Source: Gemmatales bacterium (GTDB lineage Bacteria; Planctomycetota; Planctomycetia; Gemmatales; HRBIN36). Taken from it: 64,000 bases of DNA. The stretch spans positions 32,001 to 96,000 of the forward strand of contig JBEPZY010000006.1 in assembly GCA_041640595.1 (NCBI GenBank), read 5' to 3'. Below the pieces are notes generated by a model, which searched no databases, was not told where the DNA came from, and saw nothing but the letters and a program-made list of their open reading frames with translations. The position numbers and the translations under genes were made by a program. How positions within the stretch are numbered: the first letter of the stretch is position 1; the number at the start of each line of letters is the position of its first letter. This document shows, piece by piece, positions 2,803 through 12,893 of this stretch.

Positions 2803-3120
2803 AGCTGAGGTCCCAGATCGCTTTGCCGCAGGGGCAAGCCCTGCCCAGGAAAATGCGTCTTCTGCCGGATATGGGTTTAATCCGGAAAATTAGAGCGTGC
2901 GCCAACGAGTTGCCAGGATTGGCCGTTACTTTATAGGACAACCTTCCCTGTGGCCAGAAGCCTGGAGAAAAATTTGGCCAGGAGCTGAAGCTTGGCCGAC
3001 CTGGATTAGCCTGACACCAATGCGGATACATTGCAGCCGCGCTGGTCCTTGTTTGTGCAAGCAGGAGCGTCAATCCGACGGACGCCACTTACTCGTGCGA
3101 TACCACCGCCCTGGGAGAAG

Positions 3121-4263
3121 ATGATGCACGCCTATGGTGCTGGATTTGGTACGGTGAAATGCCTGAGTCTGTGCACTGCCCTGATGCTGGCCGGTTGCCA
3201 GGGAAGCCCGGGTACCAGCATGGAAAAGCCGACTCCCTCGGCAGGACAAACCGAAACAAAATCTGGCACTCATTCATTCGAGGACAGGACGGCAAGGGCG
3301 AATTCGGACGGAGCCAGCGAGGTAAATTCTGGGCAGGCAAAGTCCGCCAGCTCTGCCAAAGATAAAAAGGCTGCCGAAAAGCCCAAGAAAAAGCCCAAGC
3401 CGGGCGCTTCGTCGGCCGTGAACTGGCTAACCGATTATCCAGCGGCCCGGCAGCTGGCCAGGCAGACAGGCAAGCCGATTTTCGTGGTTTTCCGGTGAGA
3501 GCGGTGAGCGGATTGCACCGCATTTGACGAACAGGTGGTTCGTCCTGCTGACCCCGAACTGATTCACCTGATGCAGCAATTCATCTGCGTTCGCATCCTG
3601 CAGATGAACGGAGTGGATATCGGCCTGTTCCAGTTCGATTTCGACCTGACCTGGGCAGCGTTTTTCCTGAACGCCGATGAGCACATCTACAGCCGCTACG
3701 GTGGCCGCGATGCCGAGGATGCCGAAGGGCGGATGTCCGTGGCGGGGCTGAAATATACCATGCGGCTGGTGCTCGAAGCACATCAGCAAGGGGAAACTGC
3801 ACCAGCCGGACAAAAACGCGAGGTGTTACCTGTCGAAAAAGCGTTTCCTGTCAAAGGCAAAGGGTGCCTGCACTGCCACCAGGTTTACGAAGGCTTACGC
3901 AAAGAAGCGCGGCGTCAGGGAACCTTTCGTTCGGAAATGCTCTGGGTCTATCCCTTGCCGGAAAACATCGGCCTGACACTTGACATAGATGCTGGCAACC
4001 GCATTCAGCGTATCCTTCCCGGTAGCGCTGCCGATCGTGCCGGGCTGCAAGCCGGTGATGTGCTCATCAGGATCGGTACTATTCCGATTCGTTCGCAAGC
4101 CGACTGCATGTACGCTTTACATGTTGCTCCACAGCAAGGCGAACTGCCGTTGCTATATAAGCGCGGCACGCAAACCTGTAAAACAACTCTGCTACTGTCT
4201 TACGGCTGGAAAAAATCCGATTTCTCCTGGCGCCCCTCCATGCGTAAGGAGAAACCGCAATAG
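3121..4263 (+). CDS. Putative selenoprotein: lipoprotein with a thioredoxin-like (Trx7-type) domain carrying UxxUxxC, a CxxCH motif and a PDZ domain; two in-frame UGA at 3496-3498 and 3505-3507
   Basis: ORFs 3031..3498 and 3535..4263 are in the same frame. The junction reads KPIFVVFR-TGA-E-R-TGA-A-D-C-TAFDEQVV. Lipobox LAGC, GCLHCHQ, and PDZ-like ILPGSAADRAGLQAGDVLIRIG. GGAGA lies upstream of ATG 3121. Confidence 0.85.
3526..3544 (+). promoter_or_regulatory. Candidate bacterial SECIS hairpin
   Basis: Perfect 7-bp stem GACGAAC/GTTCGTC with a G-containing loop AGGTG, about 25 and 34 nt downstream of the two UGA codons. Confidence 0.65.
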
Positions 4264-4673: not shown

Positions 4674-6512
4674 TCACACCGGTTCGGCAGCACTCGACGG
4701 ACATGTTTCCCGCGCAGGCAGGTAAATGCGAAATGTGCTTCCGCGACCTGGCTGGCTTTCCACTTCGATACGGCCACCAAGCATATTCACATAGCCCTGA
4801 ACAATGGCCAGTCCCAGACCAGCGTGTCCGTCACTTTCCCCACGAGACGTGTCGGCTCGATAGAAGCGCTGGAAAATACGTGCCCGCACTTCCTCGGTCA
4901 TGCCGACACCGGTGTCCTGGACTTCGATGTAAAGCGAACCATTGTTTTGTTCAGCGGAAACCTGGACGGAACCGCCAGGCCGATTGTATTGCACAGCGTT
5001 ATCGAGCAGGTTGATGAGGATGTCGCGGAGCTTAGCCGCATCCGTGTAGCACAGCACCGATGGCACCGATGCACTGAGGGCAACCTGCTGTTGTTTTGCC
5101 AGCGGTTCGACCGTGCGAATGCAGTCCTCCACCAGCGCGGCCAGATCAAACCAGTGCCGACGTACCTGGTCCACTCCCGCGTCCAGTCGCGCCAAAGCAA
5201 GCACACGTTCGGCGAGGTGGCGAAGCTGCCGGCCAATCCGCTGACAGTTCTCCAGAGTGGCACGGTATTCCTCAGCGCTGCGAGGTCGCCGTAAAGACAC
5301 TTCCAGGGTAGTCAGCAAAGCCGCGATAGGCGTGCGAAGATCGTGCGAGATGTCGGCGATGGCCTGCTTTTCTCGCTCGAATGCCTGTTGTAAGGAGCGA
5401 AGAGTTTGCTGCAATTTTTCCACAATCGGCACCAGTTCTCGCGGCACGGGCTGGCCATCCAATGGCAGCGAAAAAGTCTTTTCATTCACCTGACTGACTG
5501 CATCAGCGATTCGGGCCAGCGGTTTTAAGTTGTTCCGAATCAACGCCCAACCTCCGATCCCGGCCCCAGCAAAGGTGGCAAGATTGGTCAACAACAAAAG
5601 CAGCCCGAAAGATCGCAACGCCGAACGGGTGTCGGCTTCGCTTTGCCGCCAGCCTTCATCGCGGCGCTGGGCGAGTCGTTCCAGTTTTTCGGCCAGCGGA
5701 GCCGTACTTCTGGCGACGGAGATAAACAGTTGCGGAGCTGATTGGTCCACAAAGGGAGGCAAGTTTCCGACTGGCGGCTTGCCTGGCGTCGGCGGGCGAA
5801 GAGTGCGTCCGGGAAACTCTGAAGGTCGCCCGCGTCCGGAAGGTCCGCTTCGTTCTGCTGGCCAGCCTCTCCACAGGAAAAACCGCCAGCGGCTTACCGG
5901 CACACGCACCGTGACTCGCCGCATGGGTTCACCTTTGGGGCTTTGAATTTCGTCATAGTACGGCTCCAATAATCGCAACTGCTCCCGCCATGTCGTCGGC
6001 AGTCGCCACGGCTCGGATAGGTTGGGTGAATAGTGCAGCACCTCCCCGTTGGGAAACGTGAACTGATAATAGAGCTCCTCTTCGCCTTCGACAAAAAATT
6101 CCTCAGAAATTTCCAGATTGGGAGCCACCAGCCAGTGCAAACGCAGGGCCAGTGGCGTATAAGCATCCTGTCCGAGCCAAATCGGCACGGTCGCAAAGGC
6201 GTTGGCGTCGAGCACAGCCGTCAAACACCCCAGGGCGAAAAACCGCAACCGCGGCCAACGCCATTGCAATCGGGCAATCCCCGCCAGAGCGTGTGCCTGG
6301 TGAAGCAAACTTTCATCGAAACGCTCTCTTTCCTCCCGTTCCGCGCTTTCATATCGAGCCTGCAACATTTCCCGAATGCCGTTCTGGCGCACTTCCAGCG
6401 AATAACGAGCCAGCGCGTACGCTGACCACGACACCCATCCCAGGACCAGCCCAAGAACCACCAGCAAGCTTAACAGCAAGCGTAATCGTATCGAACGCAT
6501 CGCATCCCTCAT
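4674..6512 (-). CDS. Membrane sensor histidine kinase (HAMP, HisKA, HATPase)
   Basis: N-terminal and pre-HAMP TM segments, ISHDLRTPIA H-box, NLLDNAVQY, DTGVG, GLGLAIV. Confidence 0.96.
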   Translation of the reverse strand: MRDAMRSIRLRLLLSLLVVLGLVLGWVSWSAYALARYSLEVRQNGIREMLQARYESAEREERERFDESLLHQAHALAGIARLQWRWPRLRFFALGCLTAVLDANAFATVPIWLGQDAYTPLALRLHWLVAPNLEISEEFFVEGEEELYYQFTFPNGEVLHYSPNLSEPWRLPTTWREQLRLLEPYYDEIQSPKGEPMRRVTVRVPVSRWRFFLWRGWPAERSGPSGRGRPSEFPGRTLRPPTPGKPPVGNLPPFVDQSAPQLFISVARSTAPLAEKLERLAQRRDEGWRQSEADTRSALRSFGLLLLLTNLATFAGAGIGGWALIRNNLKPLARIADAVSQVNEKTFSLPLDGQPVPRELVPIVEKLQQTLRSLQQAFEREKQAIADISHDLRTPIAALLTTLEVSLRRPRSAEEYRATLENCQRIGRQLRHLAERVLALARLDAGVDQVRRHWFDLAALVEDCIRTVEPLAKQQQVALSASVPSVLCYTDAAKLRDILINLLDNAVQYNRPGGSVQVSAEQNNGSLYIEVQDTGVGMTEEVRARIFQRFYRADTSRGESDGHAGLGLAIVQGYVNMLGGRIEVESQPGRGSTFRIYLPARETCPSSAAEPV

Positions 6513-6635
6513 CGTTCTCCGACACTCTCAATTGCGGTTACCGTCCGTACGATTATCGGCGAGTGCCTGGATGGTCGCGGACCCAGGCACTTCTACGATT
6601 GGGCATTGCCAGTTTGAATCCACGCATTGCTGCCA

Positions 6636-7319
6636 TCATACTTCATCTTCCTCGCTTCGCAGCATGTAACCTTCGCCCCAGCGGGTCAGGATGAGCGGCG
6701 GTTCGAACCCTTTGTCAATCTTTTGCCGCAGATAGCGAATGTACACGTCCACGACATTGGAAGTATTTTCGTCATGTTCGTCGTAGAGATGCTCCCAGAT
6801 CATGGGACGAGTGACCACCCGACCACGGTGGAAGGCGAGAAATTCCAAGAGCGCGTATTCGCGCGGGGTGAGATGAATGACTTTGCCACCCCGTTTGACT
6901 TTTCGAGCGGCGGTGTCAATTTCCAGGTCGTAAATGCGTATGATGGGATTTTTCACCTGATGTTTGCGACGAACCAGCGCACGGATGCGGGCGAGCAGTT
7001 CCTCAAACTGGAACGGCTTGGCCAAGTAATCATCCGCTCCCAAATTCAAGCCGTGTACCTTTTCTTCCGTGCTCCCGCGAGCAGTCAAAACCAGGACATG
7101 GGTAGTCAATCCCCGTTCCCGCCAGCGCTTCAACAGCGTCCATCCGTCCACTTTCGGCAACATGAGATCGAGCACGATGACGTCGTACTCGTTGACCCGC
7201 GCTTTGTAGTCGGCTTCCTCACCATCGTAAGCCACATCTACGGCAAACCGCTCTTCCTCTAAACCTTGCTTGAGCGCTCCCGCTAAGGTTTTATTATCTT
7301 CGACGATGAGAATCCGCAT
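6636..7319 (-). CDS. OmpR/PhoB-family response regulator
   Basis: MRILIVED, LDLMLPKVDG, GADDYLAKPF, SNVVDVYIRYLRQK winged helix. Confidence 0.97.
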   Translation of the reverse strand: MRILIVEDNKTLAGALKQGLEEERFAVDVAYDGEEADYKARVNEYDVIVLDLMLPKVDGWTLLKRWRERGLTTHVLVLTARGSTEEKVHGLNLGADDYLAKPFQFEELLARIRALVRRKHQVKNPIIRIYDLEIDTAARKVKRGGKVIHLTPREYALLEFLAFHRGRVVTRPMIWEHLYDEHDENTSNVVDVYIRYLRQKIDKGFEPPLILTRWGEGYMLRSEEDEV

Positions 7320-7646
7320 GGTCAGCACTCACCGCCTTGGTCCACTGAAACCGACTCTTGGGCATCCCCCAAGGTAGTGTACGCCAGCAATTCTTAAATG
7401 GGTATGAGCAAATCAATCGCACACCGTTACGCTCACCGGGAATTGCTGGCGGGGCGAACAGGGAACACAGCTCGATAGATTTCTCGGCCCACCCTGAAGA
7501 TCCTGTATCTGATTCCGGGACCGATTGCTCTTGCCTACTTTTGTGAGCGCGGTTATGCAACCGGGTCTAGGCGGCGAGGTCAGCGGCTCGTCAAAAGGCA
7601 GGACCGCAAACCTCCCGAGTAGTACGGTGCAAACTCACGCAAGGAG

Positions 7647-10304: not shown

Positions 10305-10499
10305 CCAGAGCCGGCAGCAACACGCCTAGGACATCGCATCATGAGCCAAACTTCCTGCAAAAACCAGGCCTTGAAACAAGCTCAACAAAATCTCTATCCT
10401 TGTGCTAAACAAACCCACGGGCACCAAAATCGCTTCGTAGAAGAACCCAGTAAACCGGTTCCAGAAACCGCGCCCAAAGCGCTTGAGTTTATCCCACCA

Positions 10500-10653
10500 C
10501 GGCGATCCCGTGAGGTCGACATAGGTGGCTTATTGAGCACATACTTGCCTTGTACACGTTCGTATCGCCGGCGGTAAGCGACAGCCGGTCCTCGCGCAGG
10601 AAGCGACCCGCTTGCGGATCGTACCAGCGGGCACGGTAGTAATACAGGTTCTG
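10500..10653 (-). pseudogene. RHS repeat-associated core remnant (frameshifted)
   Basis: QNLYYYRARWYDPQAGRFLREDRLSLTAGDTNVY, then YVLNKP and YVDLTG in shifted frames. Confidence 0.85.
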
Positions 10654-10993
10654 CCGGCACGCTAATAATACAGACTTAGGGCGGCGTCGAGTTCGCGGGC
10701 GGTGAACCTGAACCGGTCGCCCGCTGGTGGACTTGGTTCGTTCAACAGAGCGAGAAAACTGGCGTAGCCTAGACCACCGCTTAGCTACTGCTTTCATACA
10801 TCACAGATACGCGGTGAACGGGATGCAGACTCAGCTAACGGCGCACCGTGGGTCGTGTCATCTTCTTGAAATTGGTTCCTCACACCCCTAGCCTAGACGT
10901 GATTCGCCTAAGCATCTATGCAAATCAGTCCGTTATTACCCGACCGGTGATGCCGAGCATTCTTTTGGCATAGAAGACCAGCAAGCCACTGCC

Positions 10994-11311
10994 CTAGGCT
11001 CCGCCGGACCGTGTGCTTTGGATTTCCTCATATAATCGGAGGCCGCAGTGGATGCATCTTCCAGCCACCGTGTTAACATAGCACCATGTGCCATGCAGAG
11101 GCCTGCCACACCGTGGGCAAGGGAAATAAACCCAGCGCAGATTCAGCACTCCCCAAACCATGCATATAGCAATGAACAGTGCACCGGATGCCCAGAAAGG
11201 AAGCTCCAGCCAAGCCGAGACAAACATTAGACCGAACAGCATAGGTATCATAATTACAAACCAAATACGAGCAGCACGTCTTCGCCTTCGATAAACGTTC
11301 CACTCTTTCAT
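10994..11311 (-). CDS. Small 2-TM protein with a C-terminal zinc-ribbon-like motif; probable immunity protein
   Basis: GGAG RBS; two hydrophobic helices; CPRC...CIHC; lies downstream of an RHS toxin tip. Confidence 0.65.
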   Translation of the reverse strand: MKEWNVYRRRRRAARIWFVIMIPMLFGLMFVSAWLELPFWASGALFIAICMVWGVLNLRWVYFPCPRCGRPLHGTWCYVNTVAGRCIHCGLRLYEEIQSTRSGGA

Positions 11312-11436
11312 AGTAGCCAGTCTCCGTGAAGCCGAGCATTTTCTTTATACACACTGTCGGGGTACATTCCACAGTCAGAAACAACCTCACTACTGCTTGT
11401 GACTATCTCCGCCATTGACCAACAGTCTACGCTAGC

Positions 11437-11946
11437 TCAGAACCATTGCCACACCCAGGTTCTTAAGTCCCCCACATGTATCCCGCCACCTACAGTGAAC
11501 GGACTGGGAAGTGTTATGCTGAAACCTTCATACGGTGGAGGAGCCTGCCGGGGCGGCTGTGGATCTTCGATGAGATAGTCAAACCCGCAATACCGAGAAC
11601 TGAAACCTATGTACGTGGTCCAGCCGGAGAGGTCTGCAACAGATTCAGCAGTAGTGACGGTCACATATGGGGATACGCCTCCTCCGAGCCCTACTCCAAA
11701 CTGCGCGCCTCCGGTGAATGTCATGCCGCCACTAAAGCCTTTTTGCCAACTCCAACCGAACGTTATGTCTACATTCACCTGAAAATGCAATATACCCAGG
11801 TATAACTCTCCACTAACGCCCAATCCGATCGTAAGTAGCCCCGAAGGGTCTCTTAATACAACCGGATTATTGAACACATAGCGGTACAAATTCGTATCGC
11901 CGGCGGTGAACGACAGCGGGTTCTCGCGGAGCAAGCGACCCTGCTG
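11437..11946 (-). pseudogene. Orphan RHS core end plus C-terminal toxin tip
   Basis: GRLLRENPLSFTAGDTNLYRYVFNNPVVLRDPSGL (PxxxxDPxG boundary) followed by a tip of about 130 aa; no RHS body upstream. Confidence 0.85.
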
Positions 11947-12121
11947 CTCATGAAACTATAACAAGCAGCCGACTAGCGGATGCCACTTTGGTATGCGACG
12001 CGACTGCGGAGCGCAGGCCTATTGTCATGCATGTTCCGTTTTATGCTTAGGCCCGCCATCGCGTGAGTTATGGCATTTCGCCACTTTTTCGCTCTATTTC
12101 CATGTATGTTTTGTCGTATGG

Positions 12122-12337
12122 TTACGCACCTAGTCTTGCACGATATGCCGCTTCACTAAGCGCTGCAGCTAGTTTCTCCGCATCCTCAGGACGCAGGTCC
12201 ACTTCAATGTCATTGATTCCGAGAACGTTCAGCACTAGCCTGACGTACTTGCCCTCGATAAGGTAAACCCCAATATAGAGCTCCTGGCCTTCTAATTGGT
12301 CGGTGGTCGTATGCGACCAAAAGGGTTGTATACTCAT
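12122..12337 (-). CDS. Small hypothetical protein; probable immunity protein
   Basis: AAGGAG RBS; 71 aa, acidic; immediately follows a toxin-tip remnant. Confidence 0.65.
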   Translation of the reverse strand: MSIQPFWSHTTTDQLEGQELYIGVYLIEGKYVRLVLNVLGINDIEVDLRPEDAEKLAAALSEAAYRARLGA

Positions 12338-12358
12338 ATCAATCTCCTTGTGGAAGGC

Positions 12359-12893
12359 TCACTTCTGGAAACCCGGCATCGGGTCTCCGGGGACGAATGT
12401 GTCGCGCCTAACTCCGTGATAGTGTATATGCCAATGCGGATCCCTATGCTTTGGCGGGCTGTCGTATCATAAGGATGGGCTTCAAATGTGATTGTTATTC
12501 TATCAGAAGGCTGCCAGACGACCTTATTTCTGCCGGGGGTCACGGGGCTGTCGGGAATGCGCTTACCTTCGATGCCTAACAATCTGTCCATCTCCTCTGG
12601 CGTGCTGGGCCAAACTGTCCGCTGCGTCGGGATTCCTGGTCCGCTACGGGTAAGAACGCGGCGAATGCACCGACCAGCATAGCGACCAGCGTACACAAGG
12701 GCAACAGCCCGCCGTAAGGGCCGATGACTTCTCCCAGTGGTTCCGGGTCGCCGGTAACAATAGCCACCTTGATTTTCTCGTTGGGGCCGGGCAGGCCGAA
12801 CAGCACCTCGTCGAAACTGATGTGCGTTACGATTCGGATAAAGCCAGCTTCGTCGCCGGCGGTTAAGGAGAGTGGGTCTTGGCTGAACGGACG
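12359..12893 (-). pseudogene. Frameshifted RHS core remnant plus His-rich toxin tip
   Basis: FSQDPLSLTAGD core remnant; WPSTPEEMDRLLG...FEAHPYD, then HRDPHWHIH...GDPMPGFQK* in a shifted frame. Confidence 0.7.

Follow-up and report, generated by a model that had tools for sequence, protein, structure and literature searches.

The window, the 64,000-nucleotide stretch of Gemmatales bacterium DNA analysed here, carries a gene (3121..4263, + strand) with two in-frame TGA codons, which encodes 380 amino acids when both UGAs are read as selenocysteine (Sec). Its product is a short form of the protein family NF041199 with one PDZ domain. The codons at its centre are TGA at 3496-3498 (UGA1, Sec126), TGA at 3505-3507 (UGA2, Sec129) and TGC at 3514-3516 (Cys132), all on the + strand; the reading frame closes with TAG at 4261-4263, and either ATG 3121 or ATG 3124 may be the start codon. 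Standard ORF calling returned two pieces, 3031-3498 and 3535-4263, just as an earlier note on this DNA had said of gene callers, and translating 3121-4263 (+) confirmed its claim that two in-frame ORFs are joined as F-R-U-E-R-U-A-D-C.

The neighbouring genes nuoH, nuoJ and nuoK (564-2802, - strand) are divergent from this gene, an arrangement also seen in the relative L020, and the opposite strand farther downstream (4674-7328, -) encodes a CusS/CusR-like two-component pair, which is not conserved in L020. The neighbourhood offered no functional clue, and no promoter-like site was found in it. Farther along the window, at 10489-12696, short ORFs with ends that look RHS-repeat-like by eye suggest the remnants of a polymorphic toxin cassette array.

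Identity and domains of the read-through protein

The read-through protein scored 357.9 bits against NCBIfam NF041199 (Trx7/PDZ domain-containing (seleno)protein; cut-off 300), so that the family named in the earlier note proved to be the right one. The match spans model positions 2-291 of 390, and the domain order, Thioredoxin_7 followed by PDZ, is that of NF041199 according to both Pfam and Foldseek. The full length of the family (~390 positions, two PDZ domains), which is not a criterion of the cut-off, is not reached: the second PDZ domain is missing, and 255 amino acids lie downstream of the motif, as compared with a family median of 368. The same short length recurs in the close relatives L020 and L242-L246, indicating a natural short form.

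The N-terminus is a predicted lipoprotein signal peptide (3121..3198, +), read by eye from the translation and ending in L-A-G-C (Cys26); a hydrophobic stretch followed by G-C is retained in the close relatives L020, L240, L244 and L245. Judged from these residues, the protein is probably exported and lipid-anchored. A low-complexity Ser/Ala/Lys-rich linker, poorly conserved among relatives (3199..3414, +), leads to the Thioredoxin_7-like domain (3415..3786, +), which was assigned by Pfam PF13899 (E=1.8e-11), the order of strands and helices in the structure model and AGR2/ERp19-like matches. Beyond it, a CxxCH motif (Cys249, Cys252, His253; 3865..3879, +) forms a pattern also found in relatives and is a possible heme c attachment site; a C..CH pattern 100-200 residues after the active-site motif occurs in 139/139 genes of our first gene set (see below). 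Two cytochrome c assembly proteins (PF01578) are encoded in the genome. The motif, a predicted export signal and maturation genes are all present, and no cytochrome family or fold was matched in Pfam, NCBIfam or Foldseek. The last domain is a PDZ domain of the HtrA/DegP type (3961..4155, +; Pfam PF00595, E=1.8e-7, with DegP/DegQ matches in Foldseek). The structure model is weak (pLDDT 71, pTM 0.53, with 52 over residues 129-138), and it still matched DegP-type PDZ and AGR2/ERp19-type thioredoxin folds.

Cys/TGA exchange, Sec machinery and the active-site register

The bare pattern of two neighbouring TGAs is common: 11 in-frame pairs, the present one included, were counted in the six frames of the genome when the two TGAs could be 3 or 4 codons apart and each side had to stay open for 100 codons. 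The pair in this gene is more than chance because the read-through product exceeds the NF041199 cut-off and because the two positions are Cys or TGA throughout the family. Of 401 genomes searched in the phylum, 137 have the family. A first gene set was drawn from 30 loci, 100 regions and 11 family loci, of which 140 were parsed and, after removal of one duplicate, 139 kept; a second set was drawn from 95 loci (80 from metagenomes, 11 from the same family and 4 unparsed earlier), yielding 94 rows, from which 13 duplicates were removed to leave 81. Across these 220 genes the motif was UxxU in 108, CxxU in 73, CxxC in 39 and UxxC in 0, proportions that do not reflect prevalence, as 16 listed matches, 11 of them Cys-type, were left unfetched. 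In 220/220 genes both positions were Cys or TGA and never another residue; Trp, the residue that would have spoken against Sec, was absent from the alignment of homologs. UGA as a Trp codon was rejected on this ground and because many homologs, at their usual C-terminal length, terminate in a TGA. The UxxU and CxxU forms are interleaved on the tree, with 22-25 changes, at least 6-7 of which are forced by strongly supported branches. Tandem UxxU paralog pairs were seen in two genomes (L114, L130).

The genome encodes the complete set of Sec factors that the earlier note had proposed looking for. Profile searches found selA, selB and selD, all above cut-off, with selA adjoining selB on contig C2 and selD, which has one in-frame TGA of its own, on contig C1; ARAGORN found one tRNA with a UCA anticodon, a canonical tRNA-Sec scoring 75.7 bits on RF01852, which supplies selC. 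Among the matches listed, selA was present in 89/92 genomes with a TGA-type copy and in 7/24 genomes with only Cys-type copies, a comparison that covers 116 of the 137 family genomes (33 family matches fall outside the listing) and includes non-independent kin. The three TGA-type genomes without selA are 67, 84 and 92% complete.

Both UGAs very probably encode Sec. That the TGAs are instead true stops, in a pseudogene, in two separate genes or through a sequencing error, is extremely improbable: although gene callers do return two ORFs and a same-genus UxxU ortholog (L240/L241) carries a frameshift ~110 codons past the motif, being itself a pseudogene or an assembly error, a break at this point would cut through a continuous thioredoxin fold, and across many families of the phylum the two positions are only Cys or TGA, with covariation in the SECIS described below. 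A sequencing error, which had been raised as a possibility, is further contradicted by contigs from four sequencing runs (at most four studies, none of them among those flagged as possible sources of the assembly), which differ from the window by 9-16 letters in their longest piece and keep both TGAs; no difference fell within 3481-3610 among the 40 differences listed of 42, those listed all lying elsewhere. In the RNA run X16 the gene is also covered by contigs, a cover that says nothing about expression. We consider it very unlikely that the protein has one Sec, at UGA2, and a Cys at UGA1 supplied by a tRNA-ReC-type system or near-cognate read-through. Position 126 is Cys in all other alleles, and the available sections of PMC13582414 warn that one or both UGAs of a UXXU motif may be Cys in tRNA-ReC genomes; against this, the present genome, 95.5% complete, has a single UCA tRNA, the canonical tRNA-Sec, with one SelB and one CysRS above cut-off, and the single CysRS means that it gives no sign of a UGA-to-Cys system. 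Taken together, the comparisons establish, at the level of sequence, that the frame is intact, that Cys and TGA replace each other at the two positions, that the Sec machinery is complete and that a predicted SECIS is fixed 25 nt past UGA2. The earlier proposal, a single 380-aa product containing Sec126, Sec129 and Cys132, has good support; neither non-Cys residues in homologs, nor missing Sec genes, nor a sequencing error came to light.

The same note had placed the two UGAs at the thioredoxin active site, which is correct for one of them. Alignment to solved thioredoxin-fold proteins put the canonical CxxC at Sec129-x-x-Cys132, with Sec129 aligning to the first Cys of 3fk8, 2lst and AGR2 and Cys132 to the second residue of the site; Sec126 occupies an extra, accessory position three residues before the canonical nucleophile, where those proteins have no Cys. 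Alignment to a DsbD-like selenoprotein of the same genome gave the same register. The first Cys of a thioredoxin CxxC is the usual nucleophile, according to the accessible text of PMC2757866. A canonical Sec129/Cys132 pair accounts for the distribution of the motifs: the UGA2 position is TGA in all 181 Sec-type genes, the UGA1 position is TGA only where UGA2 is also present, and UxxC was never seen. Position 132 is Cys in 127/139 and 78/81 genes of the two sets, and its loss (15/220) is confined to Sec-type genes. Since Cys132 can be lost and position 126 never is, a bond between 126 and 129 can still be envisaged; on these alignments such a diselenide may form, though it is not the first assumption.

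We lean towards an oxidoreductase role rather than a metal-binding one. Sec129 would act as the nucleophile at the N-terminus of the helix, pairing either with Cys132 (selenenyl-sulfide) or with Sec126 (diselenide). The PDZ domain would bind protein clients in the envelope, the heme on CxxCH, if present, would pass electrons, and the whole protein would be an envelope thiol/selenol oxidoreductase. Metal binding is the main rival: the three chalcogens may bind a metal or an iron-sulfur cluster, as in a sensor or chaperone, and not cycle as a disulfide oxidoreductase. This is unlikely, though less so than the alternatives discussed above, given that Cys132 is missing in 15/220 genes and that the nearest solved relatives are PDI/AGR2/DsbH-type proteins; the cis-proline column was placed from the weak structure model.

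SelL reportedly replaces CxxC itself with UxxU and forms a diselenide. The earlier comparison of the window protein with SelL holds for the thioredoxin fold and the two Sec three residues apart, which are also features of bacterial Prx-like UxxU proteins (PMC2398784 and PMC13188914, in the parts available), but not for the register, as the canonical CxxC here falls on Sec129/Cys132 and a third chalcogen is present. Two Sec in one UxxU motif, which that note called rare, are not rare in this family: UxxU is the commonest motif among the family genes fetched (Cys-only copies being under-fetched), and the available text of the respective papers already has bacterial UxxU motifs in the Prx-like, NF041115 and FmdB families (PMC13188914, PMC2398784) and in Group 4 hydrogenases (PMC13582414). 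NF041199 itself shares the Thioredoxin_7 and PDZ architecture, with Sec at the second motif position, and is listed as CxxU with 1 Sec in the accessible parts of PMC13188914 (Table 1) and PMC9312934, whereas the window protein is UxxU with two Sec; the window copy differs also in lacking the second PDZ domain and in having a lipobox and a long linker. The literature that we covered, including the available text of PMC13326102, PMC12013277, bioRxiv 2022.07.06.499078, PMC1976440 and PMC8659212, with subscription papers thinly represented, contained no UxxU form of NF041199 and no helper hairpin of the kind described below. UxxU members may already be known to the NF041199 curators or to the family's first describers. 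The protein family and bacterial UxxU motifs are already known; the UxxU form is under-described, and annotation splits it.

The SECIS and a probable helper hairpin

A hairpin with the features of a bacterial SECIS, H2 (3526..3544, +), has a 7-bp stem and a 5-nt loop with G at loop position 2, and folds at -8.2 kcal/mol. Its loop is downstream of both UGAs, 25 nt from UGA2 and 34 nt from UGA1; PMC13188914, in the text accessible to us, gives a spacing range of 16-37 nt and four constraints for bacterial SECIS elements, all of which H2 satisfies for both UGAs. The bacterial consensus (E. coli fdhF type; bSECISearch model) is likewise matched in loop size, loop G, spacing and energy. UxxU and CxxU genes alike have an H2-type hairpin at +19 to +37, counted from the second codon, with no shift in register, and CxxC genes lack it. 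The loop G is present in 178/181 Sec-type versus 7/39 Cys-type genes, and pair 23-33 is retained in 171/181 Sec-type genes through five pair types versus 6/39 Cys-type genes, counts that are favoured by our having defined the pairs from the sequences in which they were counted.

Between the second UGA and H2 lies a smaller hairpin, H1 (3508..3521, +), with 4 G-C pairs and a 6-nt loop, starting directly after the second TGA. In the window it folds at only -4.8 to -6.5 kcal/mol, and its register varies in the family. When the region 3496-3575 was folded as a whole, its stability was not exceptional (z -0.78); the RNA-structure signal emerges only from comparison across homologs. We scored H1 as present when the 18 nt after the second codon folded at -3 kcal/mol or better, which was the case in 96/108 UxxU, 15/73 CxxU and 5/39 CxxC genes (62/71, 12/43 and 4/25 in the first set). 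The excess over synonymous shuffles in the first set was -3.17 for UxxU, 0.00 for CxxU and -0.16 for CxxC, and was limited to windows starting at -3 to +4. A tree-based regression with Brownian covariance, on a quick tree built with the H1 codons left out, gave a slope of -3.1 to -3.4 kcal/mol (p <=1.1e-7). On this tree ~19/22 pairs of UxxU and CxxU genes pointed in the same direction when weak branches were included; strongly supported branches alone left 6 independent pairs, and the sign test on these was not significant (median p 0.25-1). Metagenome loci held out from the first set, many of them close kin, agreed, with H1 in 29/32 UxxU, 3/26 CxxU and 1/10 CxxC genes. In addition, 10 UxxU genes encoding an identical hexapeptide fold at -3.1 to -4.7, whereas the sole CxxU gene encoding it folds at -0.4. 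As judged from these comparisons, H1 shows the mark of synonymous-site selection in the double-UGA alleles only, and is likely to function in the reading of UGA1. Some natural alleles thus encode one and the same peptide but differ in how their RNA folds. The genome of the window offers an internal control of its own, the full-length CxxUxxC paralog L032 (G000:C4:309798-310904), which carries the SECIS as well and has a weak H1 (-2.7 kcal/mol).

Our overall reading, which we hold to be probable, is of an exported protein made by SelB-dependent insertion of Sec at both UGAs, with a single SECIS and H1 as its helper. SelB-GTP-Sec-tRNA would bind H2, which would serve both codons. For UGA2 the spacing of H2 would be the locally usual one; from UGA1 the loop is 9 nt further off. 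Given the footprint of the ribosome relative to its A site, H1, which starts 10 nt past UGA1, would begin at about the point where the mRNA leaves a ribosome with UGA1 in the A site. Folding of H1 would take up ~14 nt and bring H2 to a similar effective distance from UGA1, and the ribosome would melt H1 on moving to UGA2.

Whether H1 works mainly as such a spacer is, in our estimate, evenly balanced. The 34-nt spacing from UGA1 lies within the 16-37 nt given in the available text of PMC13188914, so H1 is not formally needed, and 12/108 UxxU genes do without it while 15/73 CxxU genes have it. H1 might also be a pausing or termination-blocking element at the mRNA entrance of the ribosome, resembling the eukaryotic Sec redefinition element (SRE), with one SECIS for both codons. 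Such a role is improbable as a replacement for the spacer, and the two are not exclusive: a start 10 nt past UGA1 (7-10 nt in the HMA family described below) suits a pause, and SREs beside a UGA boost recoding without being essential (PMC5727441, in the parts available), as would match the 12/108 UxxU genes without H1. CxxU genes, however, face the same competition and have no excess structure at the matching distance except the base of H2, and the hairpins occur where the SECIS is distant. We doubt more strongly that each codon has its own element, with H1 acting as an independent SECIS at which SelB binds for UGA1. The specificity of H1 for double-UGA alleles, a G within the first two loop positions in 52/62 H1 hairpins and a loop ~15-16 nt from UGA1, about where the published range begins, would all suit such an element, but when the SECIS model was applied to H1, a loop G followed by G/U was found in 7/62 and an energy of <=-7.5 kcal/mol in 10/62, and the window's own H1 does not conform to it.

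The two-hairpin arrangement has partial parallels in known systems. The bacterial SECIS model is a single stem-loop, whereas here a second hairpin, tracking the extra UGA, stands between codon and SECIS. The SRE is likewise an optional coding-region hairpin beside a UGA, separate from the SECIS (PMC5727441, accessible parts), but it is eukaryotic and accompanies a SECIS in the 3' UTR, while H1 is bacterial, lies upstream of an intragenic SECIS and is known from sequence. UXXU variants of Group 4 [NiFeSe] hydrogenase also have two UGAs three codons apart, in an unrelated protein; the sections of PMC13582414 examined propose a single downstream SECIS for the two codons, possibly aided by further factors, and describe no extra hairpin, a question on which its supplementary figures 3-4 may bear. 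That 2026 paper, as far as its available sections go, leaves open how a bacterial ribosome decodes a UGA pair with this spacing when the SECIS is intragenic and position-dependent. The worthwhile part of the present analysis is the predicted two-hairpin recoding layout, which appears in two unrelated families.

An HMA-domain family and other in-frame TGAs

The second family, HMA-domain proteins with a double UGA and the same apparent two-hairpin layout, is a new result. NF041115 (UxxU metal-binding (seleno)protein, HMA fold) gave no match above its cut-off of 95 in 301 genomes, and the search yielded planctomycete HMA domains with two TGAs at 55.8-63.8 bits. These relatives share the two UGAs and the two-hairpin layout with the window gene but have an unrelated fold, an upstream hairpin whose stem includes the second UGA, and UxxxU spacing in 19/34. 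Profile searches and parsing left 81 distinct HMA domains, comprising 34 with a double UGA, 8 with a single first-position UGA and 39 of the Cys type. The best G-loop hairpin lies 24 nt past the last UGA in 28/34 double-UGA domains (33 or 36 nt past the first), and excess structure from the second UGA onwards was found in 25/34 of them versus 3/39 Cys-type domains, these being distant controls compared without a tree. The upstream hairpin starts at +7 or +10 after the first UGA, as against +10 in the Trx7/PDZ family, so that the fixed distance is only approximate. With a single first-position UGA, the loop is at +21 to +26 in 6/8; among these single-UGA genes, L373 has an upstream hairpin stronger than that of any other gene. 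This agrees with a spacer role, yet it also means that such a hairpin can occur without a second UGA. The 34 double-UGA genes (L352-L359, L364-L405) encode exported or fused HMA/MerP-like domains of Planctomycetota with UxxU or UxxxU, and in L356 and L358 the fusion partner is a thioredoxin-like domain that contains another TGA.

Within the genome of the window, hand-picked single-UGA genes have their loops at +18 to +31, and single-UGA selD (+33) and a BCP-type peroxiredoxin (+39) have a distant loop with a hairpin in between, a comparison that rests on ~8 hand-picked genes and is anecdotal. The peroxiredoxin orthologs are mixed, with a plain loop at +26 in six and three ambiguous. Genome-wide selenoprotein screens were noisy, with 380 candidates by coding potential and 689 by loop pattern, and UGA1 of the window and selD were absent among the coding-potential candidates listed. 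It may equally be so or not that bacteria generally use a two-part signal, in which a collapsible hairpin 7-10 nt past a UGA brings a far-off SECIS into range and lets one SelB site decode two close UGAs in turn; the arrangement would have evolved more than once within the Trx7/PDZ family, with a separate origin in the HMA family, and would also serve single UGAs with a far SECIS. If true, it would extend the bacterial SECIS model, improve selenoprotein prediction and possibly help the expression of multi-Sec proteins.

An in-frame TGA was also found at the thioester Cys of an alpha-2-macroglobulin (Pfam TED domain; G000:C1:766827, -; L170, L210-L229). The site is TGA in 10 and Cys in 10 of the 20 loci examined, and one TGA is present in ~26 of the 48 matches listed, in 29/251 genomes; in the TGA forms a long-loop hairpin is stronger, and its loop lacks the usual G. 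The words 'macroglobulin' and 'thioester' are absent from the available text of the 2026 review PMC13188914, and a literature search gave nothing relevant; a selenoester macroglobulin, if true, would be worth a study of its own. Other likely selenoprotein genes of the genome lie at G000:C3:649976, C3:188085, C2:320003, C2:6353, C1:211390 and C6:160081, and are of ArsC-like, TlpA-like, DsbD-like, deiodinase-like and BCP peroxiredoxin types, together with a thioredoxin-like type without a family match.
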